Source: Ancylonema sp. (taxonomy: Eukaryota). Taken from it: a stretch of 64,000 nucleotides of DNA. A program made the position numbers and the translations under genes. The stretch covers positions 1 to 64,000 of the forward strand of contig JBFLGF010000077.1 of NCBI GenBank assembly GCA_050230475.1, written 5' to 3'. Of the stretch, positions 1,726 to 36,462 are shown piece by piece (the stretch's first letter is position 1; the number at the start of each line of letters is the position of its first letter). Under the pieces are notes generated by a model. It made no database searches, was not told the origin of the DNA, and saw nothing but the letters and a program-made list of their open reading frames with translations.

Positions 1726-1755
1726 AAACTATGGCGTGCCTTTATGGACGGTGTG

Positions 1756-8978: not shown

Positions 8979-11900
8979 ATGATGACCTCTTCTGCGCGAA
9001 GGCTCCTCATCTTCGGCGCCTTTTTGGTCCTGTTTGGACTCCTGCACACATGCGAGGCAGCGTCCGCCAGATTTTCGTTCCATCAGTTGACTGCCCTTCG
9101 AACAAAGAGTTCTTCAGGAGAAATTATCTCCGATTCTAAAGCAAACTTACTTGAACAACACGCGGGCCTGGGGGATGTCGTCGGACCCAGCACATCGTTT
9201 CAACTGAATGCTTACACTGGAGGAGCGCTCCTGCTAGCTTGCCTTGTAAGTACTCACCTCGACTACGTGGTTGCATTCATCCTTACTGCTTCGTCAGGGG
9301 TACGACCGATTTTCAAATCTCCGACCTTTTTTCGTTGATCCGTGGATGTACGGAACTTGTCTATGGTTATGCTATGGTTATGCTATGGTTATGCTATGGT
9401 TATGCTGGATGGGGAGAAACCATCACCACAAGAAATTCCCGAATCAAGTCTCGTCCCTGTTCGAATTTCCTATTCTACTCGAGTGTACTCAAAGCTCGTA
9501 CATCTCTTTCTTTTCAAACTGTTCACACCCTTCACTATAATCAAGGTATCTTTGAGTTATCTTGGGCAGTCTGCGGAGATGATGGAGGTTATTGCAAACT
9601 TGCCAGATTGTCGATCAAATGGTCATTTCGACATGAAGTACTAAAATTTTGTCAGAATTTCATCATGATGTACGAAAACACACACATCAAACTCGTGGAC
9701 TACTCCCACACACTCTTTAATTCCCGTGGGCCCCATGGTGGGCTCATCCCACCCACGTGTTCAGCAGGTGGAGTTAGTAACCTTTATTGTAACCTTCATC
9801 GTGACCTTTATCGTAACCTTAATCGTAACCTTCATCGTAACCTTCATCGTAACCTTCGTCGTAACCTTTATGGTACCCTCGATAGTACGTTCTTAACCGG
9901 TTCGTGTTCTTGGTGCCCCAGTGCGCCCTCTTAGCCAACTCCGCCGGTATCGGAGGCGGTCCCTTCTACATGCCGCTATTCGTTGCGGTGCTGGGCTTCA
10001 ACATGAATGCAGCAACCGCACTATCCCACACTGTGGTGGCCTCAGGGTATACTCCTCACCCCCACTTCACAGGTGGCCCCCACCTTCCACGGCTGGAGGA
10101 TTGGAGGAGCGGCTGGGGGCGGGTTCACGGAGGAAGCAAATATTAGAGTACACAGTAACACTGTTAATTTAAATACTGCCTAGTACAACGGCTGAGTCAT
10201 CAGACACACCGCATGCCTGCTCCGTTTGCTGGTGGTAAAACACAACATTACTTTCTCCGGCAGCTCCTCCTGAAGTCCCATCCATGACCACTCGTCCTTC
10301 TCGTTTTGTATCACTCCAATGAGACTTGTCTCCTTTGGCTTCCCTTGTCTTACCCCCTCCCGCTCACGTGCCTCCTCCAGTGCTATCGCCAGCACGGTCT
10401 ACGGCATATGGCAGCGCAGCCCTGTGGATCCAACCAAGTCTTTGGTGGATTTCAGTTTGGCGCTCACGTTTGTGCCTGCACTCCTGGTGGGGGCGGGGAT
10501 CGGAGGTACGACCACATAGCTAAAGTAGATTGAATTCTTGAACAGTGACAGGTTGCTTATGATGCAAGGTTAATCAAAGGGAACAGGTGGCGGCGTTTGG
10601 AGTGGGAAAACATTTTGCATCTCTGTATGGTGCATTGGAAAGTCTTTCATTCTGACTGGTATCAAACACGATTTTGTAGATTAAAACTAAACGATATGGC
10701 AAATGAAGGCTAGAATCGGCCTTCTCCTCCATGCAATGACCTCAAACGCGCATCTGTGTCTTCCCGTTATGGCATCCTTTTTTGCAACCAAACGAAAATA
10801 GACATGGCGCATGTTGGAATTCCATTCCAAAAGAGTATTACGAACCACCATGATGAACGAATTCTCCATAACACTCTAGCGCTCCGTGAGGGGTCCTGCT
10901 ACAATACAAAAAAAAGTTGTTCTTCGACCATCTGACCATGGGGCTGGGGGTGGAGCAGTGATCTTCAACACGTTGGTTCCGCGATGGCTCCAAGTCTCGG
11001 GCCTCACTCTCCTGCTGCTCTTTGTCATACGCAAGACGGGCGCAAAGGCGCGAAGTGCGTGGGTGAAAGAAACCAAGGGCAGGCAAGGGGGGCAGGTGAG
11101 AAACACATCCATCCATCCACACTCCTCCTCCTACGCCTGCCTTCCCCTCAGTGGTGGCAGAAGCCCACCATACTTTTAAACCAACAAGCAGGTGTGAAAC
11201 GAACGAACGATGGTTTGTTTTCAGGTGGAGGTTGAGTCAGAGGAGAGGCAAGGGGTGACCTCAGAATGGGGCCCCCTTCCCCCTCCCCCCCCCCCTGCGG
11301 TGAAACATGGGGACGGCCTGGTGGGCCAGCTGAAGGAGTGGGGGGACCACGTGGTGGAGGAGATTTGCCACGTCATCCACTACCAGGAAGTGAGGAGGGA
11401 GTGGTCGGTGGGGAGGAGACGGTTTGAGGATGTGGCCGCGCCGATGGGGATACTTGTGGGTAAGGGGAGGACAAGGAAGGCATGTTTTTTTCAGTACTTG
11501 TATCAATATTTTCTGGTTGGTTTGTCGACTCGTACTCGGAAGTTGGAAGCGAAATGTTGTTCTACTTTGCATCTACCAGCATTCTTACAGGCTCCATACC
11601 ACTACCGACTTTGAACCGAATGAAAGTTGTCCATGCTGTCGGTGTTCCTCTGTTACTCATCTTGCCATTGGGGGGTGTATGCCGTCCTCTTCTCCTCCTT
11701 ATCCTTCCAGTGGTGTGGGCGGTGTTTCTAGCATTCAAGCTGGGAATGGCCAAATCCGAAAAATGTTCCCTTTGGTTCTTCCTTCTGTGGGGCGGGCAGA
11801 CCGCCTTCTGCGCCACTGTCACTGCCCTTGTAGTACTCCACCAGGTAAGCAGGGAGAGGGGAGCCGTGTATTCTCGTCAGGAAAGGCTCCAAAGGTCCAT

Positions 11901-16346: not shown

Positions 16347-16813
16347 TGTTAGGATCCTCGCTACAGTCACTAGGGCTCCCTAGCGAGGTCCCCGAACTTA
16401 GTGCTAGAGCGCTACTAGCCCAGATTTCCCGATACCAAGTTCTCCCCCTTTATAGTGAGATTTGGGTCCCTAGCGGCCGCCTGGCCCCTAGGTAGTAGTT
16501 TGTTGTGTCCCTAGCTCAAGTAGTTGTGCCTTTAGCCAAATTATGTTGCGTCAGTAGCATACTTTGAGTCAGTTATCCCACATTGTTCCTAGAGTCGGAT
16601 AGGGCCGACTTTCCTATATCTAGGAGATAGGAATACCTCTAGAGCATTCCTATCAACTCATGTATTTGCACCACTCTTGAGTTTACCACTATTATTCCAA
16701 ACCAAAACCATTTCTCTTCGGCTTAGGCTATGATTGCATTCCGGCCTTGCGCCACCATACCATTTGTGCATTTGCAACTTGCTTGCTAGGGACTCTTGCA
16801 TCCGCCCCTAACA
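16347..16813. mobile_element. Possible solo LTR
   Basis: Termini TGTTAGG...CCTAACA and an internal TATAAA on the minus strand. The flanking 5-mers (TACTC/CTTTG) do not match. Confidence 0.35.
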
Positions 16814-18909
16814 CTTTGATAGGAATTAAAACTTGGGTTTATCATTTTTTGTAATCCTTGGCTCTAGGCTCTAGGCTCGCAGCACACGCCTGGTTTCTCC
16901 AACGTCTCAATGACCGAGGCAGACTTCCTCCTGGCTACAATCTAGAGCGCATGTTGGCTGGCCTCACGGAGTCCTGATGGGTGCCATCGATCTCTATGGG
17001 GACAGCATGGAGGTGAGAGGGAATATGTTGGTCACCAGATCTAGCCTGGGGGGGGATACATGGAGGGCGGGAGGGCTTGTCTAGACGAGCAGCAACCGGG
17101 TTGTTCTCAATGCTCTTGACAAAGGTAATGTACTCCGACCATATATTGGGGGGGTACCGGACTTCCAATATCTCTTGCCTGTATTTCTGGTTTGAGCTTG
17201 TCGAAGTAGGTGAAGACCGAGGTAGGTCCCCCCACCCCTCAAAAGCTCGAACCAGAGTGGTGACCTTGGTTGGAAAGTCCTCAGCTAAACGTGTGAGCTT
17301 GAGCTCTCGCAGGTGGCGTTCATTGGTCAGGCCGGAGTCCGCCTCAACGAAGCTTTCTATGGGACCGTCAAATAGAGCCTCCAGGTCATAACCGTGGGGG
17401 AGTTTGCCCCGATCATCCAAGAGCTGGCAACAACTGCCACAGGGCCCCAAAGTAGATGACAATCTTAGACCGGTCAGAAAACTTTTTAAGAGCTAGCTGA
17501 ACCATCAGGCGCACGCCAGTCACGAAGGTTGACACCTTACGAGACTCCTCAAACAACTTGTCAGGATCACGTTCAAGCATGCCAATAGAGGCTGGCTGCG
17601 GGATCGTCATAGGGGGGGGAGCTAGAGCCTGAATGTAGGCTGGTTTAGATCGGAGATGCTCCTCCATACCCTTTTGTTACACATGAAGTTTTTTTATAAG
17701 CAAATAAGAAAGCAACGTTTTCATCCGCCTTGTGAGATCTTTCGGCCCCTTCTAACTGTATGGGTTGTTAAGTGTTTAGAATGGTATCCATGGTGTGGTG
17801 TATAAAAAGGGTTTAACACAAGAAATCTTTGAAAAATAAAAGCCGAAAAGTTTTTTTCTCATTGAAGTGTTAGGGGCATGAAATGCGACTCTAGCAATAT
17901 ATATTGCAAAATGCATCAAGGAATGATGTCAAATGAGCCGGATGGATAGCGAAGGCGAAATGACCAAACGGTTGGTTTGAAATGAACTCACTATGAATAG
18001 TGCAACTACATGAGTTGATAGGAACGCTCTCAATATATTTCGATCGGCTAGGTATAGGAAACTCGACTCAAGTCATCTTAACTACAAATGTGGGATATCT
18101 CAAAACACAATGCTAGTGGCACAACACACCAAAGCTAAAGATGGCACATATGTCCTCAACCAATAACACATTAAAACTCAACACGGACACACAACTCACT
18201 CGAGAAACAACGGTACTAGTAACGCTCCAGTGCTAATTGTGGAAGCCTCGTTAGGGAACCCTGGTGATAATACTGCGGACTTAAGGGGAAAACACTTTTT
18301 CGACATTGCAAATGTAATAGATATTGTTTTCATACCATCCCTGAATGTAAAGTCAACGTGATATGAGGGGTATGCGACTGGCACATATTCGATCCCAGCG
18401 GATGATCCATGAAGAATCGAAAATGTTCCACACATGATTGTGAGTCGCGTTGCCATAATCTTCCGGTAACTCATATTTACTATAAAGTTGGGTGGAAAGT
18501 TTGTGCGGAGTTTGCCATGTAAAATGTCACTATGTCATATTGAATATTGTAAGGGGCCTTTTATTTCTCTCTATGATCCCGTATGACATAATATTTCGAC
18601 TATGTGAAGCAAGTCAGAGCTACGGACGCAGGAAGATGGTTGAGAGCCACACGCCTCAAATGAAGCAAACATAAATGATTTGAAATTTTGAGCGACATTA
18701 TTACGGAAATTATTAACGTATTATTAGGATTGATTGGTCTAATCCAATTATTTTAAAATTGGGTTGTCGTCGAACCACTAGATTATTATTTATTATAATT
18801 TGGCGTCACCAAAAATTCAAATATTATGTGTATCTTTGCTTCAATGAACAACTTCCCATTAATCATAGCGTGGGGCGGAGGGGCTATATGATTCCATGAT
18901 ACGGAACAA

Positions 18910-19452
18910 CTTTGGAAACCTCAGGACTAACATGGCCTCTCCAAAGTCTAGGATCAAGAAGGAGATCTCGGCCAATTCGGTCTCCGGGAAGCAGGGTGAT
19001 ACGTCTATAAATTCCGACTTCAAGAATGAAGTATCCTTCTTTGAGGCCGAAGTGGCTTCTCTGTAATATGATTGTTCTAACTCCGATTGTTCCAACAACT
19101 GTGTTTTTGTGGTGACAGATCAAACCCAATACATTTTGTCGCCATCACTGTGAAGATGTTACCAGGATGATAAATCGACGGCAAATTACACGACGATTTT
19201 AGTCCAACGAGGATTTTGATGTAATCCTCACAGTGATGGTGACAAATATGTTGGGTTTTACGTTATCTTAAAAACATAGACGCGGGAATAGTTAGACTAC
19301 ACAAAGGCCACCTCGACTTTGAAGGAGGATAGTTCATCTTTGAAGTCGGTATTCAGAGATGCCTCATCCTCATTGCCGGGCGCCGCATTGGCCGAGATCT
19401 CCAACTTGATCTCGGCTTTAGAGACGCCATGTCGATTTTGAGGTCTCCAAAG
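18910..19452. repeat. Long diverged inverted repeat (fold-back, ~265-bp arms, tiny loop)
   Basis: 18961-18976 GGAGATCTCGGCCAAT pairs exactly with 19387-19402. Pairing continues inward (TTTGTCGCCATCACTGTGA / TCACAGTGATGGTGACAAA) to a loop near 19180-19190. Confidence 0.8.
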
Positions 19453-20815
19453 CTACTCATAATCGTGAATGCCATATCGCCCCTTCGTCCCAAGCTGTTA
19501 TCGCTCGGAAGTTGCCCATCGAAAATAGTTTGGGGCGGAGAGGCAATATGGCATTAAATGAAACAAAAAGACACGTGACATTACGATTCTTAGCAAGGAC
19601 AGCCCCAACTTTTTTTTTTTTTTTTTTTAAAGAATTGGTTCGACGACACCCATTTATAAACAATTGGATCAAACCAATAAATCATACAAATGCCTTCTGA
19701 TTTTTTTTCGTATGAATTTTCAAATTACTTACGGTCCCTGCATTTGGGGCGCGTCGCCCTCTACCATCTTGCTATGTGCGTAACTTTGACCTGCTCTACA
19801 TACTGAAAACAAGATGTCATACGGATTCAAATAATCTATCAATATGGGCATCTAACATTATATGCATCACAACACACTGGAATTTTACGCACCAAACTCC
19901 GCACAATATTCTTAATCATATGTACATTAACTAAGAGTTATAGGGCGATTATCGCGATGTGATTCACAATCATGCGTGGAATATCTTCGATTCTACTCTG
20001 ATTATCTGATGGGATCGATTATGCGTCAGTCGCATGCCCCACCTACCATGCAAACTCACTCTACACTCGGGGATAGTACGGGAGCAGTATCCATTACATT
20101 CAAATATTTAAGGAAGCGTTTGCACAGATGCCCACATATTCGCTTTACGTGTATCCGTGTGTCTGAAAACCCGGATATAAACAGAATACCACCCAATGAC
20201 AACAAAACCTGCATACCATAAAATTTTGATTCAATGAACTAGAATAAATAAAAATGAACATTTTTTTGGTTTTTATTTAACGGTTCTTTCATACGAGTTT
20301 AAATCATTTGAGTCGATTATCTGAAATAATTTCGAGAACTTAAAACATTTTTTCTCTAAACTTGATATCATTATAAACCCACTCCAATATAGAATGACAT
20401 GACACCTCAAAAAGGGTTTCACCATGTATCCACATACCCAAGTATTAGTACAAAAAAAAAAATGGATACCATAACTATTCAACACATTAATGTGGTCAAC
20501 CATAACTCAATAATGATTTATAACAAAATGTGTCGACGAAAATTAAAAACTAATTCAGAGAAAAGTGTGACGTGCTGTTTGGAGTCGGCCGCCCGGAATG
20601 ATATTCGCAACACTTGAACTTCTCTCTTAAACTGGAGTTCTCTCTTTTGATGTCCTCACAATTATTTTTTCTCTAAATTCTGAATGTTGGTGATCTCATA
20701 TAGTCACAATCTTGTATCGATGAATGTTGGTAATATCTCATAAAGTCACAATGTGGTATTGTGATGCTTTCACTCCCCCCCCCCAGTTGCGAAATGGTAG
20801 TAAAGGAACTGGGTC

Positions 20816-20990
20816 TTAGGAGCAGCGTTCTCCCTTGTGGTCGGGGCAGAACCATGCACCTTCGAGTATTGATTTGAGCCGGGGTGTGAGACAATAGATG
20901 TGATAGCCATCATTACAGTCATCACACAATATAAGATATTTCTCATCGTTACGTGAACCGCATTGTCTGCAGAATGTGGGGTCAGAATTG
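20816..20990 (-). pseudogene. PHD finger at the C-terminus of the Gypsy integrase
   Basis: CRQC...LILCDDCNDGYHIYCLTPRL...GAWFCPDH (C4HC3 pattern with last ligand His). Directly follows the integrase C-terminal region 21015-21305 (AMRNLAIAQQRD...VYVKRQ...VQLQGKDG). Confidence 0.88.
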
Positions 20991-21418
20991 TTGAACAGAC
21001 CTGTGTCAATCTGGTCATCTTTGATGGAAAGACTGCAGGGTGAAACATTTTTCATCTGTTCCCAAGATGCGGCGTCCATCTTTGCCCTGTAACTGCACAT
21101 TTCCAGAAGGTCGGATTTGTGTAATCCGGAGGATTTGTGGATGTGTTTTGATGTCAAGTGTGCCTTTGGTTTGACGTTTAACGTAAACAGATTGATGTTT
21201 GAGGAGACGAGGGCGAGGTCGTGCCCATGCGCCTCTGTGTACACGGAAGTATTGATGTCTGTCTCGTTGTTGTGCAATGGCAAGGTTGCGCATTGCTAGA
21301 GGCATGACCTCTTCAAAAAAAAAATTGCGTTCCAGAATGAATTTTGGTAATTCTTTGAGTGCCTCAGGTAAGGGGTCATGTTCAGCTGCTTGTATATGTG
21401 CCTGAAAGATAGGATGTC

Positions 21419-21876
21419 TGTTAGAATATTTTGGATAGCCATATGTTATGCTTGCTAGTCCAGTTGTAACCGGTTACTCTAACCGGGAGCAATAGTCTAG
21501 ATGTGCCTGTATGCGGGGCCGGGCAAGTTTTGTCCCGGGCACCTGACATGTTTCCGACGCTTAGAGACGTTATTTGTTTGACGCGTCGCGATTGGTTTGT
21601 TTAGTCGTGTCAGAAATGTCCGGCATGTGCCCCGTTGACATGTAGAAGAGTTGTCAGTCAATGATAGGCCGACGGTCAATTGTGCCGACCGTCGGCACAC
21701 AACAATCTGTAAAGCGCATCGGGTATTACCATCCCCGATGCAATCACAATATTAATTCGTTCCACACACGCAACTCCTGTCTCGTTGATCATCTCAGTGA
21801 AAGAGATCCTTTTGCGTAGTTCGTTTTGTCGCCCACCTAATTATTCCGGCCAAGTCTAATCACTCAAAAGCTTATA
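21419..21876 (+). repeat. Copia 5' LTR (TG...TA)
   Basis: Direct repeat of 27543-28014. Ends ...AAAAGCTTATA. Confidence 0.93.
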
Positions 21877-21890
21877 GGTTATGGGCCCAC
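21877..21890 (+). promoter_or_regulatory. Primer-binding site GGTTATGGGCCC (half-tRNAiMet type)
   Basis: Abuts the 5' LTR and matches the internal tRNAiMet anticodon-arm PBS known from Drosophila copia/Ty5/Osser-type elements. Confidence 0.8.
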
Positions 21891-24800
21891 GTGCGGTCTA
21901 GTTCAGACGCCGTGTTGGTTAAATACTAAAGGCTCCACGCGATTTCGCTGCGGTAATCTCTGTGAACGGTATATTCTGCTGAGCGCAAATATATTCGTGG
22001 TTGTTAAGGTCTGCACGTAATTCTGTTGACATTGCGCTGCAAGCTTTCGAGCTGAGTGCTGCAGTGCAGGAATTGCACTGAGAACTCGAGCTGAGCGAGA
22101 AATTTTGTAAAATCCTAAACAATAGCTGCCACAATGACGGATAGGTCGCAAATCCCTCAGTTTACTAGAGCTGATTATACAGGATGGGCCAAGGTCAAGT
22201 ATGGGCTGGCGGACAAGAAACTGCATCGTCGTTTGGTGATGGATTGGGACAGCTTGCCGCGAAAGTGTCGCCCAGACGTTATCCTTCCATTGACACCTGA
22301 CAACGAGCTGCAATTTGCCGCCAGGGGGATCGACGTTGATGTCGAAATATTGGTCAGGGAGCAGCAGATTTCCCAGCAGCTGCTGGAGCTGGAGAAATGG
22401 GATGAAGGCAATCTGGCTGCTATGTCATACATTGTGAAGCACCTAGGTCCTTCGGAGCTGACGCACGTCACGGACTGACATAGCTGCCGGAATGTGGGAT
22501 GCCTTGAGGACATTCTACCAGGTGCAAGGTGCGATCGAGATCGCAAATACGGAAGCACTGCTGAGCGCGATCATATAGACAGAGGCGGAGGACCTCAACG
22601 TGTACGTCAAGCGTCTGCAGCAGCTGCATCAGGACATGAAGAATCTGGGGGCGCCAGTATCTCCGACGACGCAGGCGATCAACCTGCTGAACTCTTTAAA
22701 CACGCATTACAGCCCGATGGTCTCAACGCTGATGCCGTGGTCCGAGTCGTCACCACACCTCTTCACGATTCCCCACATCGTGAGTGCGCTGCTGCGCGAC
22801 GACGTGAGGAAGGAGCTGAACGAGCGTAAAAGGGGGGCGCTGCCAGGAGGTCACCAAGCGCATGGTGGACCTCGTGGGGGGGGAAATGGAGCTGGAGGTA
22901 GCGGCAGATCTGGTGGTGCACTGGAGCTGGTCGCAGAGACGCTGCAGGCGTCGAATGCTTCGGCTGCCACAAATTCGGCCACATCAGAGCGACATGCCCT
23001 TCACCAGCTCTTGGCGGAGGCCATGCCGGAGCCTGGAAATGTCACAGGTGCCACCAGGCAGGCCACCGAGCTGCTCAGTGCCCTGCGACATCCCGCCAGC
23101 AGCTGGAAATGTTGCGCACGCTACTCAGGGAAGTTCAGGGGGGAGGCAGAAGTGCAGATATTGCAACATTGTAGGGCATACGATTGAACAATGTAGAAAA
23201 AGAACATCTGACATGGCTCTAATGAATCCAGAAGCTGCTCGAAGGGCTGATGCACAAGCTAGACTTGCACGCTTTGCTGACAAACCTTTCGACGCTAATG
23301 TGGATTATTTAGCTTTCGGGTGCTTTCTCGTTCGATGTTGCTCGGGCATTCTGCTGTCTCACACAGACTCCCTGATTCTGGATTCAGGTGCTACCGACCA
23401 CATTTTCACGGAACGTGAACATTTTGTGGAGTACACACCTACCCTGAGCACGCGAAGGCCTACATCACCACTGCCGACGGCTCGTCACACAAGGTGGAGG
23501 GCACTGGTTTCGTGCACATCCGAGTGAGGACGAATGGCGACGCATTTTTTGTGCAGCCACTCAGCTCGATCCACGTCCCTACCTTTGCCTGAACCCTCGT
23601 GTCGACATCGTGCCTCGTCAGAAGAGGTGGGCTGAGCTTTCTACAGCTGCCCACGGGTCCACAATTAAAAAAGGGAAATGTGAAATGGGCTGATGTGCTG
23701 CAGCAGCCTAGTGGTCTGACACTTTGCTTGCTGCCACAGTCATGGCTGGATCTCATGATACGAGAGCAAATTTGTCCACAGGCATGGTCTGGCATCACAA
23801 ACTAGGTCACCCCAGTTCTGATGTGATGACAGATTTTGTCAGACGTGGTGACATCCCAGAGTTAAGTCAGGAAGAATTAACTGAAGTCAGGGGATGTCAG
23901 GTTTGTTGTCAGGGGAAGATGATTCAGCTCAGTCATGCTAAGGTCAGTGAGGATCTGGGGACATGCCCCAAGATGGGTCGCATTCACCTGGATCTCATTG
24001 GACCATTGTCTGTCAGTTCTGCTAACGGAGGATATACATATGCTCAGACAGGGATTGAGGTATCCACACGTCTGTCATTTGTCAGCTTGCTAAAAACAAA
24101 GGATGAAGCACTGAACCGAGCAAAAGTCACTATACAATTGCTCGAGGTCCAGTCAGGGTTGCCCCTACAGTCTATACGGACAGACAAGGGTGGGGAGTAT
24201 GTGTCTCAGGACTGGATAAACTACTGTGGGGGGAAGGGTATTGACAAGCAAACCACAGAAGCATATAGTCCTGAACAAAACGGAATCTGTGAAAGACTGA
24301 ATAGAACATTGACAGAAACGTGGCATATTAATCTGGTCAGGTCTACCGAAGTCTTATTGGGATGTGGCATTATTACATGCAAACTGGTTAAGGAACAGAA
24401 CACCCACAAAGTCGCTTTCTGTCGCTTGCTGGCAGAATCCCAATTGAAGTCTGGGAGGGAAACAACATGAAAATGAACAAAAGTCATAATTTTGGGTCCA
24501 ATACTTGAAGGTTTGGGGGGAAAAGAACAGTCAAGGGGACAAGTTTGCCCCTCGCACTTGCTTTGGGTTTCTGTTGGGGATGGCTGCGGGGAGTGCAGGC
24601 TACCAACGTCTTCGACCCCCATAGGGTGGGGTGATATCACGCATGGACGTGCGGTTCTTCGAGGAGGTGCCGGGGTACCCGAAGCTCATGGGGGGGAGAG
24701 CTCCCCAGGTTCAGGCGGCAGCAGAAAAGTACTTTTTCTACCTTTTTCCCAACCCCGAAGATGAGATGAACCAGCAGCATTCCAGCAGCAGCAGTCCACC

Positions 24801-27542
24801 CCACAGCCAGCAGCAGCAGTCCACCCCAACATGCCAGCTTCTGCAGCCGATGCCAGCAGTTCTCCAGCCAATCCCAGCACCAGCACAACCAGCAGTCCCT
24901 GAGCCAGCAGCTGCCATCGACTATCCGCACGACAACTTCCAGCCACAAGCTGCTAAGGTCCCTAACGCCACGATTGAGCTGTCCGCGACAGCCAGTCAGG
25001 GATCAACAACGCAGGAGGTGGAGATGCAGGGGAGGAGGAGGTGTGCAAGGAGGGGGTGCAAACCCAGGAGTGGGGGAGCCAGGCAGCATAGCTGATCGGG
25101 TGATGGCCAGAAGGCGAGCCAACTTTGCCGAGTATGGGGATCTCATGTGATGTGATGGGGAGGAGTTCGATGACGCACAGCTCACGCCAACTACTCAGCG
25201 ACTGGAGTGGGAGCCCAGCAGTTTCTACAGGCTTCAACGGTCCTGTGGATCCCTGGCTACCGGCAATGCGTAGCATCAAACAAGCAACCTCCTCCGAGCC
25301 ACTCACCCTCAACCATGCGGATGAGTGAGGCCAGACTGGGGGACCAGTGGGACAGGGCCATTGTGGAAGAGCCTCGCTGCCCTGGAGGACGTTCAACACC
25401 TTTGAGGGTGTGTGTACTTCCTCCAAGTAAAAAAGGTTGTGGGGTGCAGATATGTTTTTAAGGTCAAAACAACAAGGGGTTGAAAGATATAAAGTCAGAC
25501 TGGTCGCACAGGGATTCTTACAGCAAGAGGGTCTTGACTATAACGAAGTATTTGCACCAGTAATCGACAGTACATCTCTCACCCTACTCCTATCTATAGC
25601 CAACCAATCTAACTGGGAACTGGAACAGATGGACGTAATCACAGCGTTCCTGCATGGACGTCTGGAAGAAGAAGTATATATGAAAATACCACCACGTATG
25701 CATATCAAGGGGGGTGCTGAGGGAAAGGTCTTACGACTGAAGGGGGCTTTATACGGTCTATAACAGAGTAGCCACGTGTGGCAAGAGATGTTCAGAAAGT
25801 TTATGATATCTGAAGGGTTTACACAATGCGTAATGGACACATGTATATATATGAGGGGGGAAGCAGACAGTCATTCTGGGCATACATGTAGATGATCAGG
25901 TGATCACAGGTCCTAACTCAATGGTCGTCAAAACTTTTAAAGAAGATATGGGTAAAAAGTTCAAAGTCAAGGATCTGGGTCCCCTAACCCATATCCTGGG
26001 GGTGGAAGTGAAGAGGGATAGACAGAGAAGACTGCTCACACTGGGAACGACAGTCAGGTTTCTTAAGAGGGGAGTGCTTGAACGCTATGGGATGCATGAG
26101 TGTAATCCAACCAAACTCCCCCTCGCCCCTGGAACTCAATTTACACAAAATGATGAACCAACTCTTTCCCCTACCCCTGAAGAAATAACAGACTTTCGAG
26201 GGAAAGTGGGATCTCTCATATATGCCATGAAACAAACCAGACTGGACATCGGGTATGCACTTGGGGTACTGGCTAAACACATGGGAAATCCTGGGGTCGC
26301 ACACATAAGGGCGTTACATCAACTATTCAGATATCTTACAGGGACGTGAACCACGGACTGACGTTTGTGGGTAAAGACAGCTTTGAAGTAAAGGGTTACT
26401 GCGATGCATCATGGAACAGTTGCAGCATGACAGGCAAGTCAGTCACAGGATGGGTAACCACGGTTGGGGGGACAGCACTGAGTTGGAAGTCGCAGAAGCA
26501 GTCCATTGTTGCACAGAGCACTGCTGAGAGCACTGCTGAGGCTGACTGTAGTGTATCTAAAGATGCTGTTATGTCTCTCTTGAAAGAACTCGAGTTTCCA
26601 AACCAAATCACAATCCACACTGACTCCACCTCAGCGCTCTCCATGATCCAGAATCCTGTGCAAAGACAGAAAGCAAAACATTTTAATGTGGTATATCACT
26701 GGGTACGGGAATGCCATAGCACGGGGAGACTAATATATGTGTATCTTGCAGGCGCAAATCAACCAGCAGATATGCTAACTAAAGCTTTACCCCAAGTTTT
26801 ACTGGACAGACACATCAAAAGTCTAGGTTTTGGACGGTTATACTGAACTGGGGGTGTCAGTAGTTTTCTTTTATTTTTATGATCGAAGGTTTCGAATGCC
26901 ATGCATGTTGGCAGGGGGTGTGTTGTTATGTTTCTTTTCAGGCAAAGTAATGGGGAGGGTACATCAACTTCAGCTCATCCAGCTAAGTCACATCTTACCT
27001 TAATACCTTGAAAAGACACTTGAAAACGCTTAGGACACTTTAAAATCAGAAAGTGATCTGCTCAACTTTAAACTTGTCAGTTTAATGTTTTGAATTTTCG
27101 AATGTATGTCTTAATCATTGTTGCAAAACTTGTTTCAAAAGTTGGTGCTGATAAGACTGGTAATTTTGAAGTTATGCTGTTTTGAGATTTTTCTGACTGG
27201 AAAGTGGAAGTAAAGTAATCGTGAAGTTGAAAAAAATAAAAAATCAAACATATTTTCATAAGTTTTTTTGTTTTTCGCCTAACTTGTGGTATTTGTTTGT
27301 ATGTTCAGGGACTAAGGATCTGGAGCGATCGACTTCTGGAGTTCCGATCGGCTTCCGATCGTCTTCCGATCGTCTACGGCTGCATTTGTCGGATAGAATC
27401 CCCTAGCTAGCACGCTTGTATGCTAGGGAAGACCAAAACTGTTATATGTTATGCAATGGTTCTGCCATGATTTGGCAATGACTTGGGTACTTCTTTTGAT
27501 GTCTGCATCTATGCCAACTTTAGCATGGCATCCGAGGGGGTG

Positions 27543-28014
27543 TGTTAGACTCTATTGGATAGCCAGATGTTATGCTTGCTAGTCCAGTTGTAACCGGTTA
27601 CTCTAACCGCGAGCAATATTCTAGATGTGCCTGTATGCGGGGCCGGGCAAGTTTGTGCCCGGGCACCTGACATGTTTCCGACGCTTAGAGAAGAGACGAG
27701 ACGTTATTTGTTTTGTTTGACGCGTCGCGATTGGTTTGTTTAGTCGTGTCAGAAATGTCCGGCATGTCCGTTGACATGTAGAAGAGCTGTCAGTCAATGA
27801 TAGGCCGACGGTCAATTGTGCCGAGACCCGTCGGCACACAACAATCTGTAAAGCGCATCGGGTATTACCATCCCCGATGCAATCACAATATTAATTCGTT
27901 CCACACACGCAACTCCTGTCTCGTTGATCATCAGTGAAAGAGATCCTTTTGCGTACGGTTCGTTTTGTCGCCTACCTAATTATTCCGGCACGTCTAATCA
28001 CTCAAAAGCTTATA
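27543..28014 (+). repeat. Copia 3' LTR (TG...TA)
   Basis: Preceded by PPT GAGGGGG(TG) and homologous to 21419-21876 with several small indels. Confidence 0.93.
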
Positions 28015-30534
28015 ATGTCTTCCATACAGAAAATAGTATGGTGAATACCCGGTAGAGGCCTGTTTTGTCATGCGGTACCCCATGGCGACATAAGGTAGGT
28101 AAATGTCCCAATCCGTGCGATGTTCTTTTAGTAGGATTTTCCTTAATGATAGTTTCATCGTTTGAACCATGCGTTCTGCTAATCCATCAGATTGTGGGTG
28201 TTCTCGGGCTGCAGTACGATGTGTAACTCGATGTCCGACAAGTAAGTCGGTGAATGCCCCTTCAAATTTCGCGCCTTGGTCGGTGATGATTTCACCAGGG
28301 GCCCCAAAACGAGAAAGGACATGAGTGAGTAAAGCATGTACTGCTGATTTTGAAGATTTGTAAGGTAGGGCGATAAGTTCAACCGGTGAAATGTTCAATG
28401 CAGATCATAACGTATTGGTTTTTACGTGTACTTTCTGGCATAGGTCCAGCGGTGCGAAGTCAACTCCCCAACGGTAGAAGAGTCCCCGAATTGGTAATGG
28501 TTGTAGTTGGGTACGGCCATCAGCAAAGTTTGTTTTTGCTCGAGAATATGCTGGACATTCTTTAATGACCTTAATGACATGATTCCCCAGTCCATGCCAC
28601 CAGTAATCTTGTTGTAAAGCGTGGAGCACGCGTTTGACCCCAAAATGACCCAATCGTGTGTGCATGGTATTGATGTGAGGAGTTCGTTCTCGTGGTGGTG
28701 GAACAATTTTCATGTGTCCAGAGGTAGGGATTTTGTAAAAATATATCCCCATCCATCTGTATTTGAGAGCCCCTCGGTATGTACGGTCTCTTTGTTGTGG
28801 TGTCAAGTAAGGTAGGTATGCATGAGTTTTGAGAAGTGTCATTGTGGCATTATTATCCCAAATGTCCACTTTGACATCTTCTCGTGATGGTGTACCTTGG
28901 TAAAAACTCAGAAAGTATGATGGTGGATTTTGACCCGTGGATGAAGTTTGCATGTAGTAGCAAGGTGTTTTCTCCCCTAATGTTTCAATCTCATGGTTGT
29001 CAGTGGTTTTCTGTGGTAGTGGACAACGAGTGCACCCGTCGGCATTGGAGTTCGCAACACCGGGGCGATGAATCACTTCAAATTCATACTCGTGGAGTAG
29101 GAGTGCCCAACGCGCAAGTTTGCCGATGAGTTTGGTTGTAGTCATGATCCATTTGAGGGGTGCATGATAGGTAATGAGGGTAAATGGTTTACCAAACAGG
29201 AATTGACGAAAATGTTGCACCGCCTAAATTACAACAAGACACTCCCCGTGGAAGCTGCTGTAGTTCCGTTCCGCATTGTTACAGCTGCGACTAGCAAATG
29301 CGACTGCGTATTCGGTACCATCGTCATCTGTCTGACTCAAAACGGCACCTAAATCATGTGCACTCCAGTCGGTTGCTAATAAGTATGGTTTAGTAGTATT
29401 TGGTCTTCGGAGCACAGGCTCGGAACATAGTGCCTGCTTAAGTGCAATAAAGGTTGTTTCTTGCGTCTCGTCCCAATGCCATTTGACATCCCCTTTTTAA
29501 AGTCCGTTGAGTCGGGAAGCAATCGTGGAGAAATTTGGAACGAACTTGCGGTAATAGGAAAACAACCCTAGAGCAACACGAAGTTGATGAATATCCTGTG
29601 GTGTCGGCATATCCTTAATAGCTCTGGTTTTCTCATCTTGTGGTGCAATACTTTTCCCAGAGTTCTTATGGCATAAAAAATCCATTTCATCTGCAAAGAA
29701 AAAACACTTACTTGGATGACACTTCAATTTGAACTGCCGAAGGCGATGAAAGACTTGTCGAAGGTTTTGGAGGTGGTCCTCGAAATTATTGCTCCAGTTG
29801 CTGATGTCATCAATGTAGCATCGTGAGTTGCGGAGTCTTGCCAAAATTCGGTCCATGGTACGTTGGAAGAATGGTGGTGCATTCTTGAGTCCATATGGTA
29901 CGACATTCCATTCATAAAGTTGACGGTCAGCTCCCATAAACGCAGTTTTGCATTTGTCCGTTTCAGAGATATGGATCTGGTGGTATCCTTGTCGTAAATC
30001 CAATTTCGTAAAAAAAATCGCTTCTTTCATGTCTTGAAATATGTCCTCAATTCTTGGAAGATGATACTTGTCTTGTTGGGTGTGGTTGTTGATAGGTCGA
30101 TAATCACCACACCGGCGAAAGTCCGTTGGTTGTCCGTTCTCGTCCTTCTTTCGTACCACGACGGTTGCCGATGCGTAATTATTACTGTCACTTTTTCGAA
30201 TCATGCCTAGTTCTAGAAGTTTTTTACAGTTTTCTCGAACAAAACTCCGTTTGGTGTCAGAAAGACGATGGGAGTTTTGAAAAATTGGTTGAGCTGTTTG
30301 CGCCGGAATTTCCATAGGAGTATTGTTTGATGGGAGTAACTCTTACAGAGAAAATGCAAAGACAACGCGGTTTTCCTCCAGAAGGTCAATAACTTGGAGT
30401 TTTTGCTCCTCCGTAAGATTGTTGCCAATTTTCCATGTAATGGGTTTCACCTCAGTTTCTGGTGGTGGATCTGGGTTGGATGGACTCATGTTGTCATCGG
30501 TGACAGTTGTTGATTGATAATCGGTTTCACTCAA
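28015..30534 (-). pseudogene. Gypsy RT, RNase H and integrase of the DNMT-carrying element
   Basis: DYRPIN, KLDLRQGYHQI, YGLKNAP, CYIDD (RT); LATDWS, ASRSCNNAERNYSS, LARWALLL (RNase H); GHFG, WGVDF, ITDQG, HPQSDGLAERMVQ (INT). The reading frame resumes (LYGRH-PIFQ) at 21413 once the Copia and one TSD copy are removed. Confidence 0.93.
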
Positions 30535-30720
30535 TAGTGCTTGAGTGATCGGAATTGCATCCCGAGCAAGTTGTCGTTGCGCAGTTGAAGTGTGATGCTG
30601 GTGATTCCTATTGTTGTAAAATTCATTGGTCGTAGAATCGTAATGAAGTGTGTGGTATAATGGAGCAATAGAGTAGTTGCCTCCCCCCCTTTCCTTGGTT
30701 GGCCAGGTGGGGTGTGTACC

Positions 30721-31815
30721 CTATGCAAGGGTGTAAGATGGGAGTGCATGTATAGCCATGAGAATGCCTCCGAACCATTTAGCCATGTTGTGATCCATTG
30801 TGCGTCCCGACATTGCTTTCCGAGTATTCTCCGAAAAGCTTGGTGCACATGTATCTCCATTGTCAAAACCCATGAGTCGCTCACGTTCCCAGACATTTGC
30901 TTCCTCCCAGTCATGCTTTTTTGTGTTGTAAAGCATTCCAGGGCCTAGTTGATTGTACCCTTGCAACTTAAATTGGTAATTGCCTGGGTACGAGACAAGT
31001 GTCGGTAGTGCACGACGTAGTTCGCCAGTTTTGTTAACCGGAGTGAATGGTGGTTCATCATCTTTGAGTACCTTGTTAGGTCGATGATGTGGTTCAAGAA
31101 TGGTTGACAAAGGTGGTAATTCCGGGATGTCACGAATGGCCAGTTCCAATACATCTGGTGATATCCAGTTTGTCCATATGCATCGAACACGGTGGGCTGT
31201 ACTACCGAAACTGCATGCGTCGGCAACTGCTGGAAAGCCTAAAAAAGACTTGATGAGGGTATTTGTATTTCGAATTTCCTTCACCAGATCTCCAAATGGA
31301 TATGTGTTTTCCAAAATAAGTACTGGTGGGTATTTTTGAACTCTAATGAGATGGTTGATGGCTCGAATGAGGTCGAAGAAGTATGGAAATCGTCGATCAC
31401 AGTAGCCTTTGCCTTGTCCGGCTTTGCTGACCATTTGACATTCCCATCCAGCGAAGATGAAGTCAATAGGTCCTCGTTGTAAGATCAGTTCATCCAGATC
31501 GTTGTTTGATATTTTGGAAATATCATGAGAAAGTCGAGTGTCGAAACCTTTAATTGCACTGGTTGGCAATCGTCCTGGGTATCGAACTTGAAGTTTGGGT
31601 AATGTTGCACGAGTGATGTCGCGTGCGTCTTGGTCAATGTCACTGTGGGTATATGTACCAATGTTGTTTCCAGCTTCAAGGTGCATGATAGCGCCACTGC
31701 AACTCATGCCACCAAAAGGCTCCCAAATGTGTAAACCATATTGCAGCGCCTTAGGTTGTAACCGTGCTGTATAAGATGGGTCAATTGGTACAGCATCGCG
31801 AATCGGTATATACTT
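30721..31815 (-). CDS. Retrotransposon-encoded C5 cytosine DNA methyltransferase domain
   Basis: Motif I LHIWEPFGGMSC (just upstream of the listed ATG, same frame), motif IV IDFIFAGWECQ, motif VI LILENT, motif VIII DACSFGSTAHRVRCIWTN, motifs IX/X ERERLMGF...GDT and RKAMSGRTMD. No internal stop over ~364 codons. Confidence 0.85.
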   Translation of the reverse strand, partial: KYIPIRDAVPIDPSYTARLQPKALQYGLHIWEPFGGMSCSGAIMHLEAGNNIGTYTHSDIDQDARDITRATLPKLQVRYPGRLPTSAIKGFDTRLSHDISKISNNDLDELILQRGPIDFIFAGWECQMVSKAGQGKGYCDRRFPYFFDLIRAINHLIRVQKYPPVLILENTYPFGDLVKEIRNTNTLIKSFLGFPAVADACSFGSTAHRVRCIWTNWISPDVLELAIRDIPELPPLSTILEPHHRPNKVLKDDEPPFTPVNKTGELRRALPTLVSYPGNYQFKLQGYNQLGPGMLYNTKKHDWEEANVWERERLMGFDNGDTCAPSFSENTRKAMSGRTMDHNMAKWFGGILMAIHALPSYTLA

Positions 31816-32225
31816 CTATGCGTTCCATTGTGGTAATGGCTGGTTTTGTAGTTTGTCGATTGCCTTGCGCAAATACTGTGCGCTGTTGATACGCAAGGTT
31901 GTAAGTTTGTTGAGTGCATGGTGCTCATTTACTTGTGCCATTGTTCTGGCTGCCGCATTAAGTTGTGGTCGATGCGCTTGACGAATGTCTGTATGTTTGG
32001 TTGTAGCAAGGTAAACCATGGTATTGGTTTCCCATTCTTGCATCTGAGGTTGGTACTCATTGTCGATGGGTCCATCTGGAAAATGTTGTGGTTCGTGGTA
32101 TAATACACCTTCCATGATACGAAACTCAAATTCTGTCAAAAAGTCGGCTTCTTCTGTTGAATGTAACAAATCCTCGTTCGGAATTTGCATGAATGTGTCA
32201 GCAGAAGTGTACGTAACGCCTTCAT

Positions 32226-33527
32226 TCATGTATTGACAATGCACCGAATGCCGCGTGTGGCAAGGTAGATTTGACTTGAATTGAGGCACGGTGTGTACCT
32301 TGTTTCTGCCAGTCGACGCGACGAATGATGACTCCATGGATCTGTAATACCTCCTATTGGTCCCAGGAAAGTACTGCCCAACAAAACATCGTATTTGTCG
32401 GAAGGTGTCAAATGAAGTTTGGCGTTACCGAAGTTTGGTTTTTACCATGTCCACTGGTGATGGTATATGCTCTCTTGGTGGTCCCCAAAGATTGTTGATA
32501 TTTGCCATCTGAAGTTACGTATTCTTCTCCAGGATCAAGGTCTTGTGGTGTAGAGCTTGAGTTGTTTGGCAAATTTGATACCGATGGTAACATTCTCCGC
32601 ACCTGAATCAAATATTGGTAGTGAAGGTGTTTCTCCACCAATAGTGCGTATGGATTGACTAATGTCAGAGGTTGGTATATGCCAGTTGGTTGTCAATCTG
32701 GCGTTGCAAGGAATCACCGGCGGTTTGGTGTTTTTTGGTCCCATTATAGAGAGTGCCATTGGTGGTTGTGGCATCTCTACTTATCGAGGGTAATCATGTG
32801 GTGGTGGTATGTCTCCTTGAGGTGAGTCAAGTAACAAATTCCGTCGCCGTGGACAGTTGGTCATTGTATGTTCTGTTTATCCACAAAAATAACACCGTAA
32901 TTATTTTTCAATGACATCGTATGGTTCCTCAAATTCAGGTATGGTTGGTGCCTGATGTGGTGCAGACTCGAGTGGTGTCGAGGTACATGGAGGTGAAAAG
33001 TCTGGGTAGTTATCGATGGAATACCCCAGGTTATGTTCAATCTTCGTGACTGTTGTAGTCGTTCGAAGCTTTGTCATGAGTTTTTCTAGCACCCGTTCAA
33101 GTTGTTCATCAAAGATGTGAACAGATCCTATAGAAATGTCCGACTGAGGTGCCATAACCGTGTAAGCTGGTGGATCAACTTCTTTAGTCTTAGGCTGCGC
33201 GTATCGTGTGAAAGCCAATGTAGCTTTCCATACCTCCTTTGCTTGAAGCAACTGAATGGTGAGATGGCGAGGGATGTGCTCCTGCTGCCACTCCTGCTTC
33301 CTGTATGTTTGTATCATCTGGACGTGCGCCAATGTTTGTTCTCGCATATGAGGTGGCAATAGGTGTACCATTTGGTTTTGTTCCTCAATCTGACTCTGAA
33401 TGAGTCCCAGTTTGTAAAATCGAAAATCTTGTCCCAGATCTGTTGTTATGGAAAACATAGATTTCTCTGATGTTAATTTGTTCAACATGTATTCAATTTT
33501 TTGATGCTCTTTCGACCCAATGTCCAT
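32226..33527 (-). pseudogene. Gag (with CCHC knuckle) and aspartic protease of the DNMT-Gypsy element
   Basis: Gag-like ORF 32901-33527 continues past a stop into RCYFCG*TEHTMTNCP. Protease motif IFDSGAENVTIG (~32590-32620) and YDVLLGSTFL. Confidence 0.75.
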
Positions 33528-33919
33528 GATTGTAAACGTCTATCATTGAATTGTATGAGAAGTGTATATCGTCAATAAAGTAGTGGTCAGGAAAGACAAA
33601 TGATGTACAAGAAAAAAATTCTGGTCACAATGTTTGTTCCAAACTTTTAGTTATCGAAATCAACGTCTTCCACGGTCGGATTGAAGTAGTATTGCCGATT
33701 GAGTCTCTGCATAGATATCAATATTATATATATCACACGTCTGAGCGGTCTGCTGAAATTCACTACTTAACGCTGAGGGCAAGCTAACATATGGTTTACA
33801 GTTCAGAAGTCTGTGAAAATATTGTAAAGCAAACAATATAGTCTGGTGCAGACTATCGAGGTTAACAGCCGTAAGAGTTACTTTCGGTGCGAAAGCAAAG
33901 TATCGACGGCGCGTCGATA

Positions 33920-34155
33920 AAAGATGCTGGCTCAGAAAGAGCGTCAGCAGACAGGTGTAAACACGTGCTGGCTCGGAGCGAGCGGCAGCAAACACACACA
34001 CACAAATGAAATTTCCGTTTCGGAGCGAACGCGGGCAAATCGACAGATTCTTTACACACACACGCACGCTTGCTGGCTCAGAGAGAGCGTCAGCGAATCG
34101 ATGTAAGAAATTACAGTCGATCTCACGGCTGGCTCAGAAAGAGCGTCAGCAACAG
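33920..34155. repeat. Repeated GCTGGCTCAGAAAGAGCGTCAGC motif (4 copies) in the putative 5' leader of the DNMT-Gypsy
   Basis: Copies at ~33926, 33967, 34072, 34128. Confidence 0.7.
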
Positions 34156-36462
34156 ATTCAGATGAATCAGATTACACACACACAAATTGCAAAGAATGAT
34201 TTGCGAACTTACTGTCTGGCTGACGGATGTCAGGGTGAGATGAAAGACGAGCACATTGCGAAGTCGCGTAAGCGAAAGGATGCAATATTCACATAAGTGC
34301 AAGGATTCAAATAACACAGAAGATTGTTGGAAGAGATTTCTCAACAGCGCAATCTGACAACGGAAGCTGGCAGATCTGAAAGTACAAATTGTCTTTTATC
34401 AAAAAGTTGTTGCGCGGTGCCAACTGGCAGAGTTAACTAGAGTTAAACTGTCGAAGATAACGACAGGCTGGCTTCTAGAACATTACAAGTAATCTCGGCG
34501 CTACGATGAAACGGCGCGAGATATTACTCTAGTTCTACGGCTGGATTTAATCGCCGGAATGATCGACAAGTCGAAAGAGACTTGTGATTTTAACAAAATC
34601 GACACGCAACTATTTGTTGAAGACTGCTGGATTCTAGACTTCGGAAAATACGCCACGCGTTATTTTCGAGTCGTACAATTTTCGTATTTCACTATTTTTC
34701 TCGTAAAGTACTAATTCTAGGAGATCGTTATATCGAATACTCTCGTTATAGCACAATATTAATCTAGAGGGGTTTATGAACAATCTAGAGGGGTTTCGCC
34801 TTAGCGATCTCTAGCGTCATGACAAGTGTGTCGAGTTATTTAAATTTGGATCATCTTTCTTGTGGCTTCTGAGGGTAATTTTATATTCACCGAATTGAAA
34901 CTACAAATATTTGAGATCTCTCGTATTCAGGGTCATCCGTAAGTTACTTGAGTTTTCCCAAACCCGGGTCCTAATGTGTGTACCGTACTTTATCCGCTTA
35001 TCGTTTCTCCCAAGTCTGTTTCCAAAACCATGTGGATATTTCGATGGAGAAATCCGACCTGTGTCTCCTTGGGATTATGATTGAAATCATAAAAAAATAA
35101 CGACAAACATGTTGTAATAGTAAGGATTATCAATTGACAACTAGAATACAACCACTCCTCATGTTCCATTGTCAACCACGATGTTATACTACTAATCATG
35201 ATGTTGTACAACCATTGATGAAGTTATATTGCCGGCCATGTATGCAAAAGCATAATGGACGAGTAACTCAATGAGATGGCACCACAGTTGATGAGAAAAA
35301 GAACCTCGGGATTATCATATTTCTCCTATATCGAGGGTTCAGTGCTCCGGTACACCCGGAATTGAATTAAAACTTCGTCATTCGTTGTTGAGGCACTACT
35401 CTTCATAGCAAGGGGCCATCGCACACACGAACAACATAGAAATAATGGAATTCGTGTTGAAATTTTGTTACGGATTCATGTGGTAAAGTTTAGCTCAAGC
35501 ACAACTGAATTCCGAAACGATACGACTTATGACCAATCTCTTAGGCACCCCTCCCGGGAGATTTAGTATCCGAAAGGTGAATACAAAATAAAATACCGTC
35601 CACCTACACGTTACACATGACAACAATAAACAGTGAAGGCATGACTCATGTCAATGTGTCAGATTAGGGTACCGCTGGCGTGTCTCGAACTTCAGCAGGA
35701 TTTAGAGGATAGATTGAGCGAATGCCATGGTCGCAATTGTACAAACATCGAACTAACAAACGTAAAACCTACATAAATTTTCGCCACACACGACTCGGGA
35801 TGCATTTGAAATGTTTGGAAGACTTGATGAACCGAGAGGTTTTCATGAAGATGTGGTGGTTGATGAAGTGCGTGGGAAATTCCGAGTTCTTTCTTTAGGC
35901 AACAAAAACAAAATCGCGTTTCCGCGCGTTAATGACTCTTAGCGTTGACCTTCACACAGAGTGGTGTACGGTTTTGTACGAGAATCGTCTTGTACGGTAT
36001 TTATGACCTCGGAAACTGTACGGTCCCCACAAAAAGAAGGTTGCCCATAGGGAGGGTGGACCGTAGTCAACTTTGACCGGGACTGGTGTCCAAAGTTCCT
36101 CCACATCACTTAACTGACTCGATTGGCGGACGGTCGTAAATACAAAGAATTGAATCAATTATTTCTCACCACGTGGCTACTAACGTCGCTGCCAGTTGTG
36201 AAATCAGATACGCTACCATTCAGCGTCCAGAAAATTCAGGAAGGCCATGAATCAATCGTGGGAGACATGCCAAGAAATACTGCCAAGAGCGGGTACCGAC
36301 TCAGAGCTATTTCTTCCGTTATTGTGTTGTACCTTTTCCAGCTCGGGCTCTCTGTGCCACCTTGTTTTCCATCAGCACGTCCCGCTGCCTGTCATCTATC
36401 GGACACGGAACTTGACCCTGCTGGAGTGATATACAATTTTCCACCTTACCAGATCAACAATA

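Follow-up and report, generated by a model that had tools for sequence, protein, structure and literature searches.

A PHD finger behind the integrase in a DNMT3-bearing Ty3/Gypsy retrotransposon family: a decayed copy from Ancylonema sp. and its relatives

The window (the whole stretch of DNA analysed here, 64,000 nucleotides of the Ancylonema sp. contig JBFLGF010000077.1) contains the decayed remains of a Ty3/Gypsy element (minus strand, 20568..34824), which is about 7.7 kb long without the Copia element nested in it. Read from 34824 to 20568, it opens with TG and closes with CA, and the 4-bp duplication AGTG adjoins it on either side (20564-20567 and 34825-34828). The chance of a 4-bp match is about 1/256 by itself; both element ends also agree with loose contig ends from public sequencing runs (62 at 20568; at 34824, 78 in run X1 and 59 in run X2). 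Single-copy DNA lies on both sides, and a DnaJ-domain reading frame is found about 2.2 kb away.

Other features of the window can be listed briefly. Pieces of host genes encode gamma-glutamyltranspeptidase (6191-6850), the DnaJ domain preceded by a (GA)n tract (37027-37707) and dehydroquinase/shikimate dehydrogenase (42143-42886). For the dehydroquinase/shikimate dehydrogenase frame, the top full-length, single-copy matches are EukProt SM0000... entries, presumably Spirogloea (63% identical), followed by Gb_ entries (62%) and Closterium (60%); among the 120 matches listed, 63% is the highest identity, which suggests a streptophyte and probably zygnematophycean alga as the host. The single-copy DNA beside the element includes nested decayed inverted repeats (16571-20100; 69-82% alike), in which 18311-18777 is paired with 19636-20100 and 16606-16671 with 18000-18065. 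A 1.45-kb repeat with an internal 12-bp tandem array occurs in two inverted copies (8832-10271 and 52596-54039; 93% alike). Further Gypsy remnants (1453-4790, 58471-59062 and 61771-62312) comprise pieces of RNase H, integrase and reverse transcriptase that are about 30-46% identical to the Gypsy-DNMT3 family.

According to Pfam and tblastn, the element consists of a reading frame in the Gag position, a protease, a DNMT3-like methyltransferase, reverse transcriptase (RT), RNase H, integrase and a PHD finger, and thus has the protease-RT-RNase H-integrase order of Ty3/Gypsy; all these parts lie on the minus strand. Behind the 5' terminal region (33556..34824, inner boundary approximate), where contig depth exceeds that over the coding region roughly tenfold, the open reading frame at 32904..33539 has no Pfam match and is assigned to Gag by its position. 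The aspartic protease remnant (32325..32657) retains the DSG motif among indels and stops and is matched in tblastn by the relatives P0020 (E 3.5e-4) and P0029 (E 1.6e-4); contigs of other copies place indels of this region at 32247-32553. The methyltransferase (30724..31815) and an in-frame TAG after it (30721..30723) precede the RT (29668..30153; Pfam RVT_1, E 2.3e-28) and an RNase H with an in-frame stop (29086..29496; RT_RNaseH_2, E 2e-26, and RT_RNaseH, E 2e-10). The zinc-binding domain and DDE core of the integrase (28015..28698; Integrase_H2C2, E 3.1e-13, and rve, E 0.002) extend up to the Copia element; the integrase C-terminal region (21066..21413) and the PHD finger (20837..20971) lie past it. 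A polypurine tract read from the sequence (20773..20784) and a 205-bp 3' terminal segment with TG...CA and raised contig depth (20568..20772) complete the element.

The TG...CA ends, the short target duplication and the polypurine tract are those of Ty3/Gypsy; the two matching LTRs are not present. No second copy of the 3' segment 20568-20772 was found in the window, the 5' terminal region is unlike this segment, and a local alignment of the 5' region with the 3' end scores 41 vs 37.8 +/- 5.9 for shuffles. Since there is no LTR pair, an ordinary LTR element is less likely, and the arrangement fits the repeat layout reported for KnitGypsy-Dnmt3. Unlike ends with a target duplication could represent this reported DIRS-like split-repeat layout, A1-ORFs-B-A2-B, in a collapsed form. 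The loose contig ends in front of 20568, which cover other copies incompletely, bear a partial likeness to the 5' end of the element (agreement 0.43). Some other copies appear to have 5'-end-like sequence joined to their 3' end. The summed contig depth in run X1 is about 125-230 over the single-copy flanks vs 70,000-120,000 over the coding part; contig depth, which is not a copy number, points to a family of many copies. The copy in the window is dead.

The nested Copia (21419..28014, plus strand) has two LTRs, a primer site and a polypurine tract, as follows from the LTR alignment and from matches to Retrotran_gag_2, gag_pre-integrs, rve and RVT_2. Its LTRs (21419-21876 and 27543-28014) align with 442 matching and 9 mismatching columns. 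They end in TA, not CA; the primer site begins GGTTATGGGCCC, and the contig depth over the Copia LTR is about a million in run X1. The target-site duplication ATGTC occupies 21414..21418 (plus strand), with the second copy at 28015-28019. As the original prediction had it, removal of the Copia rejoins the integrase: LYGRH stands before the insertion and PIFQ after it, with ATGTC on both sides. In tblastn, the end of the integrase core is 60-70% identical to relatives, and the C-terminal region past the insertion is 36-49% identical to 23 relatives.

The prediction also had two frameshifts behind the Copia; in a tblastn comparison, four intact relatives give only one, at about 21066-21061, between the integrase tail and the PHD finger (21061..21066, minus strand). 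The integrase core, farther upstream, has a separate pair of indels at about 28449 and 28384. Other copies have a one-base difference at 21064 (depth 15,145/21,446 in 12 contigs of run X1; 5 contigs of X3, 2 contigs of X4 and none of X5). Considering this difference together with the tblastn comparison, we conclude that the family reads from integrase into PHD finger without a change of frame and that the break belongs to the window copy. The proposed alignment with intact relatives, e.g., P0020 and P0029, agrees: integrase and PHD finger share one frame there. A chance reading frame, or a host PHD gene caught beside the element, is rejected because the relatives are colinear.

The methyltransferase is a C5 cytosine enzyme of the DNMT3 class. 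Its Pfam DNA_methylase match has E 2.7e-7, and it carries the catalytic Cys (GWECQ) and the EN and RVR motifs; a profile of 20 sequences matches DNMT3A at 1.4e-21, DRM at 3.7e-15 and HhaI at 2.4e-10. Cys126, Glu169, Arg209 and Arg211 are invariant in all 20 aligned methyltransferases. The domain is intronless, lies within the Gypsy Pol and is continuous with the RT in P0020, P0029 and the Closterium relatives; no second methyltransferase match was found in the window element. As for the TAG, the residue before it is also the last one of P0132 (86% identical), P0115, P0117, P0182 and P0236 end a few residues past the same motif, and 17 close relatives (966-1,091 aa) start just before the RT. 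Judging from these sequences, the TAG at 30721-30723 is likely a family feature and a possible recoding point, beyond decay alone, and a translational break between methyltransferase and RT is suggested for part of the clade. Given such a break, the reader and the writer would share a chain only in the recoded product, which the protease would then cut. A search behind the TAG at 30723 supported no RNA structure for readthrough (z -0.79 and -1.78). A G-rich run is found behind the TAG (window 30690-30723), and the reading frame around a Gly-Gly-Gly stretch at this junction is not the same in several relatives. The proposal that reader and writer belong to one polyprotein therefore holds for the relatives P0020, P0029 and P0090 but not for the window copy, where the TAG follows the methyltransferase.

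A search with the integrase tail returned 23 proteins. PF00628 is present in 18 of them (12 with the integrase core), and the remaining five end or break before the finger position. P0020 (1,946 aa) and P0029 (2,300 aa) contain methyltransferase, RT, RNase H, integrase and PHD finger in one frame; P0090 begins inside the methyltransferase and is continuous to the finger. A search with the methyltransferase gave 853 clusters at 50% identity. Among the best 150 of the 853, which were analysed, 44 have integrase and PHD finger by our own profiles, 61 have the methyltransferase only, and many others are cut short. We call a relative informative if it has a complete integrase tail followed by at least 70 further residues. 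In this sense, 44 of the 46 informative methyltransferase-bearing relatives among the best 150 of 853 carry the finger (43 by our own profile and P0246 by Pfam), in support of the pairing that the original prediction proposed; the sample was found through the methyltransferase, so this ratio says nothing of how frequent the finger is in elements lacking the enzyme.

Two layouts can be distinguished. In the first, protease-DNMT-RT, the window element is joined by P0020, P0029 and the Closterium proteins; the second, RT-RNase H-DNMT-integrase, is that of most other relatives, including Scenedesmus sp. PABB004. In the integrase tree (FastTree, 72 sequences, midpoint root), the first layout forms a single clade inside the second with a local support of 0.93. 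The methyltransferase is kept and the finger is absent in P0272 and P0277 (first layout) and in P0160 and P0188 (second layout); on this tree, the finger was lost at least twice in methyltransferase-bearing relatives.

Several side observations concern the relatives and the wider searches. A Tudor-like domain is present in 35 of the 44 PHD-bearing relatives (P0125-P0264), and 24 of the 44 have another domain, about 230 residues long and marked by the motifs DPWxGxG and SPxF; both are absent from the window element and its closest clade. The former gives a weak Pfam match (PTM_DIR17_Tudor, E 1.7e-4 in P0160), and the latter is like a SAM-dependent amino-methyltransferase, to judge from weak Pfam D12 matches (E 0.005 and 0.17). 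A G-patch motif occurs between methyltransferase and integrase in P0134 and P0170. We take P0259 to combine the same methyltransferase type with a following sequence like a non-LTR-type RNase H. The metagenome scan yielded two loci, both of them distant Gypsy fragments without PHD finger or methyltransferase, and the viral scan yielded none among 16 candidates. The histone H3 N-terminus is encoded on fifteen IMG/VR contigs (L003-L017), and the two that were translated give full H3-like proteins. A mollusc-dominated integrase-PHD cluster with an Atlas match score of 0.83 is a lead only.

The finger itself has a C4HC2H ligand set, with the Cys1 codon at 20971 and a stop at 20816-20818. Its predicted place at the C-terminus of the integrase is well founded: PF00628 matches with E 2.6e-11 and 43.8 bits vs a cut-off of 24, all eight zinc ligands are present, and in intact relatives it stands behind the integrase C-terminal module. 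The C4HC3-type ligands and the terminal Trp of PHD fingers are found, with ligands invariant in 18/18 aligned sequences and His as the last one. An AlphaFold model (mean pLDDT 62; finger 73-85) adds only that the PHD finger is predicted to fold.

The LILCD motif, acidic residues before Cys1 and the lack of an obvious aromatic cage were all predicted; the window finger has LILCD, an Asp four residues before Cys1 and a Gly at the position of the K4me3-cage Trp. The cage Trp of H3K4me3 readers stands two residues before the zinc-binding His. At this position, Trp occurs in 0 of the 60 fingers parsed (42 distant and 18 close; a further 2 and 5 proteins remained unparsed, the five having no finger). 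An H3K4me3 reader is rejected on this ground and because TAF3 is the weakest PDB match shown (E 1.1e-4). The top PDB matches are the ATXR5 PHD (E 2.9e-13), KDM5B PHD1 (2.9e-12) and KDM5A PHD1 (1.2e-11); DPF2/3, BAZ2 and UHRF1 are also matched.

In KDM5B PHD1, as described in part of PMC4225485, D308 contacts Lys4, D328 contacts Arg2 and E321 contacts Thr3, and L325, P347, G349 and W351 hold Ala1. In ungapped alignments, D308, E321, L326, D328, G349 and W351 have identical counterparts in the window finger; L325, P347 and Y310 are replaced by Ile, Leu and Thr, respectively. The Arg2/Ala1 pocket of the KDM5 PHD1 class can be recognised by its Asp, Gly and Trp, with Leu at the Pro position; this Leu and the Thr at Y310 count against the reading, preferred below, that the finger is a tether. 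The Asp after Cys3 is found in 55/60 fingers (40/42 distant and 15/18 close), and an acid before Cys1 in the window finger, in 30/42 distant fingers and in 1/18 close ones. Thus, the supposed likeness to readers of unmethylated H3K4 is supported by the PDB matches and the kept H3 contacts but not by the closest relatives, of which only one in 18 has the acid before Cys1. Recognition of the H3 N-terminus looks constant across these sequences, since the Asp is kept; sensing of Lys4 looks variable, since the acid before Cys1 is rare in the close fingers.

The closest clade invites another explanation, namely, a non-histone role in this sub-clade: the finger would bind nucleic acid or another protein, or only stabilise the integrase tail. 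The closest-clade fingers are net basic (mean +1.9), with Arg or Lys six residues before Cys1 in 18/18 and two or more first-loop acids in only 2/18; 17/18 lack the acid before Cys1. Basic charge and the missing acid make a poorer fit to H3-tail binding. However, the same relatives keep the Asp after Cys3, Pro (17/18) and the Trp of the Ala1 pocket, and the window finger has a net acidic charge (-2) and the full acidic loop, a type shared by 36/42 distant fingers. We consider a non-histone role improbable.

On the question of integrase or METHYLTRANSFERASE as the finger's partner, the spacer from the integrase tail to Cys1 is 17-24 residues (n=59), and the position of the methyltransferase shifts. 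Its spacing to the integrase ranges from 49 to 405 residues (66 proteins), and it is about 1,040 residues away from the finger in P0020 and P0029. In Mantel comparisons, the PHD distances correlate with those of the methyltransferase at r 0.36 and with those of the integrase core at 0.26; they follow the methyltransferase at least as closely as the integrase, and the history of the sequences thus gives the integrase no preference.

We presume, with somewhat better than even confidence, that the finger binds the unmodified H3 N-terminus and tethers the integration complex to nucleosomes and that the methyltransferase works separately on the DNA of the element. The protease of Ty3/Gypsy cuts Pol, so the finger would remain on the mature integrase and reach the nucleus with the cDNA. 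There it would grip the free, unmodified H3 N-terminus and hold the integration complex at nucleosomes; contacts with Ala1 and Arg2 of H3 would be the constant part of the recognition, as the Asp retained after Cys3 suggests. How sensitive the finger is to Lys4 methylation probably differs between sub-clades; at most, this would make insertion at promoters marked by H3K4me3 less frequent. For the methyltransferase, the simplest substrate would be cDNA, either in the particle or at integration, in line with the proposal made for related elements in part of PMC5890265. The intergenic bias described for Gypsy-7a_cRei in part of PMC9940879 counts for the tether.

The original prediction went further and drew a parallel to the ADD-methyltransferase logic of DNMT3, with the finger reading H3K4me0 and directing or activating the DNMT3-like domain, so that methylation would be laid down at the landing site or in silent chromatin generally. 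The enzyme is indeed of the DNMT3 class, the two domains occur together in the 44 of 46 relatives mentioned, and their distances correlate (r 0.36). In most relatives, the methyltransferase immediately precedes the integrase (median spacing 132 residues), and a DNMT-integrase-PHD product is therefore possible there. In DNMT3, the ADD domain adjoins the catalytic domain. The arrangement here is different: the finger keeps its place at the integrase tail, and the methyltransferase is found before the RT in the subtype of the window element but, in most relatives, between RNase H and integrase. In this subtype, finger and methyltransferase are about 1,040 residues apart, with RT, RNase H and integrase in between, and the methyltransferase is followed by a shared stop. 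As a PHD, the finger is single and canonical; neither ADD nor DNMT3 is among the 60 PDB matches listed of 62, and the finger was lost at least twice where the methyltransferase was kept. KnitGypsy-Dnmt3 had no activity in yeast, a result that its authors call inconclusive (part of PMC5890265). The ADD/DNMT3 parallel is the weaker reading, and we give it little credence.

In chromoviruses, a chromodomain is located at the integrase C-terminus. The finger occupies the same position, and it is tempting to propose that it steers insertion into silent chromatin, together with the Tudor-like domain that stands behind it in 35 of the 44 PHD-bearing relatives. However, a Tudor-like domain is lacking in the window copy and its closest clade, and the one site available, i.e., single-copy DNA on both sides with the DnaJ-domain frame nearby, is not what such targeting would favour. 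Unmodified H3K4 is not confined to heterochromatin, which also counts against this explanation; we regard it as quite unlikely.

A broader picture, which we consider rather unlikely, would be that of a chromatin-reading, DNA-writing integrase: a green-algal clade most members of which carry DNMT3, integrase, PHD, Tudor-like and second methyltransferase-like domains in one frame, sense H3K4me0 and mark their landing site, the window copy being a slimmed streptophyte form with the methyltransferase before a recoding stop. The wider clade with the Tudor-like and second methyltransferase-like domains is a better lead than the window copy, which is dead and adds little alone.

If the finger steers integration by the H3K4 state, this would be a second, chromodomain-independent way of chromatin choice for Gypsy elements, and the finger would be a small, directly assayable domain. 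Natural controls exist within the family, namely, members that have or lack the finger, either position of the methyltransferase, and acidic as well as basic fingers; why retrotransposons keep DNA methyltransferases thus becomes easier to test.

Elements of this general kind have been described. KnitGypsy-Dnmt3 of Klebsormidium nitens was reported, in part of PMC5890265, with DIRS-like repeats and with cDNA methylation proposed. Streptophyte elements are named 'Gypsy-DNMT3' in part of bioRxiv 10.64898/2026.05.21.726589, and the streptophyte report is repeated in part of PMC12344493. The full-text literature search returned no paper whose listing or consulted passages name a PHD finger on a DNMT3-bearing Gypsy integrase, Fig. 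4c of PMC5890265 lying outside its scope; 'PHD' does not occur in the text or three supplements of PMC5890265 (Fig. 4c and the main supplement excepted), and the portion of PMC4738411 consulted contains nothing on such elements. Selgy elements as PHD carriers were not borne out: PHD is unmentioned in PMC6317226, and no paper joining both terms was found.

PHD fingers in retrotransposons, as such, are called widespread (part of PMC6673714); PHD and chromo are named as the commonest chromatin-transposon fusions (part of bioRxiv 10.1101/2021.11.30.470311), and one Ginger1 transposase has a PHD (part of PMC2836005). The nearest cases are Gypsy-7a_cRei of Chlamydomonas reinhardtii and REM1, green-algal Gypsy elements with a PHD in Gag-Pol that is proposed to limit harmful insertions (parts of PMC9940879; for REM1 also PMC6673714). 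Gypsy-7a_cRei inserts into intergenic DNA 2.6 times as often as expected by chance, and the domains listed for it do not include a DNMT; its legend gives no methyltransferase and names PHD before INT, a comparison made by description (part of PMC9940879). The pairing had been called little-characterised; this is fair for PHD with DNMT3 but not for the parts and for the reader-plus-writer idea, which are already in print.

EpiLTRs (Cymbomonas, Euglena) are similar in that an LTR retrotransposon joins a histone reader and DNA methyltransferases; they differ in having a chromodomain instead of a PHD, a DNMT that is sister to DNMT4 rather than DNMT3, and a DAM domain (part of bioRxiv 10.64898/2026.05.21.726589). 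The window element combines PHD and DNMT3 class, has no chromodomain, DAM or DNMT4-like set, and is not an EpiLTR. It shares with chromoviruses a chromatin reader at the integrase C-terminus, but its reader is a PHD of the predicted unmodified-H3 class, and a chromovirus is rejected, since no Pfam chromodomain was found in the window copy or the 23 long relatives scanned. KDM5A/B PHD1, ATXR5, BAZ2 and UHRF1 belong to host chromatin enzymes, and the retrotransposon finger is likened to them by sequence alone. The likeness to DNMT3A is that one element encodes both a catalytic domain of the DNMT3 class and a putative reader of H3K4me0; the ADD-methyltransferase unit is absent, as a plain PHD lies about 1,040 residues downstream and no ADD is among the PDB matches listed.

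The closest counterpart is KnitGypsy-Dnmt3, which was compared by description (no K. nitens name appears among the 30 clusters looked up). Both have an intronless DNMT3-class domain with kept catalytic motifs in the Gypsy Pol of a streptophyte. In neither are the terminal repeats ordinary paired LTRs; they are DIRS-like in KnitGypsy-Dnmt3, according to the part of its description consulted, and the window element has no LTR pair. We believe that the pairing of PHD finger and methyltransferase is real, conserved and family-wide and that the element belongs to a described kind; unlike KnitGypsy-Dnmt3, the family here extends to chlorophytes (Scenedesmus), where the methyltransferase stands at another place.
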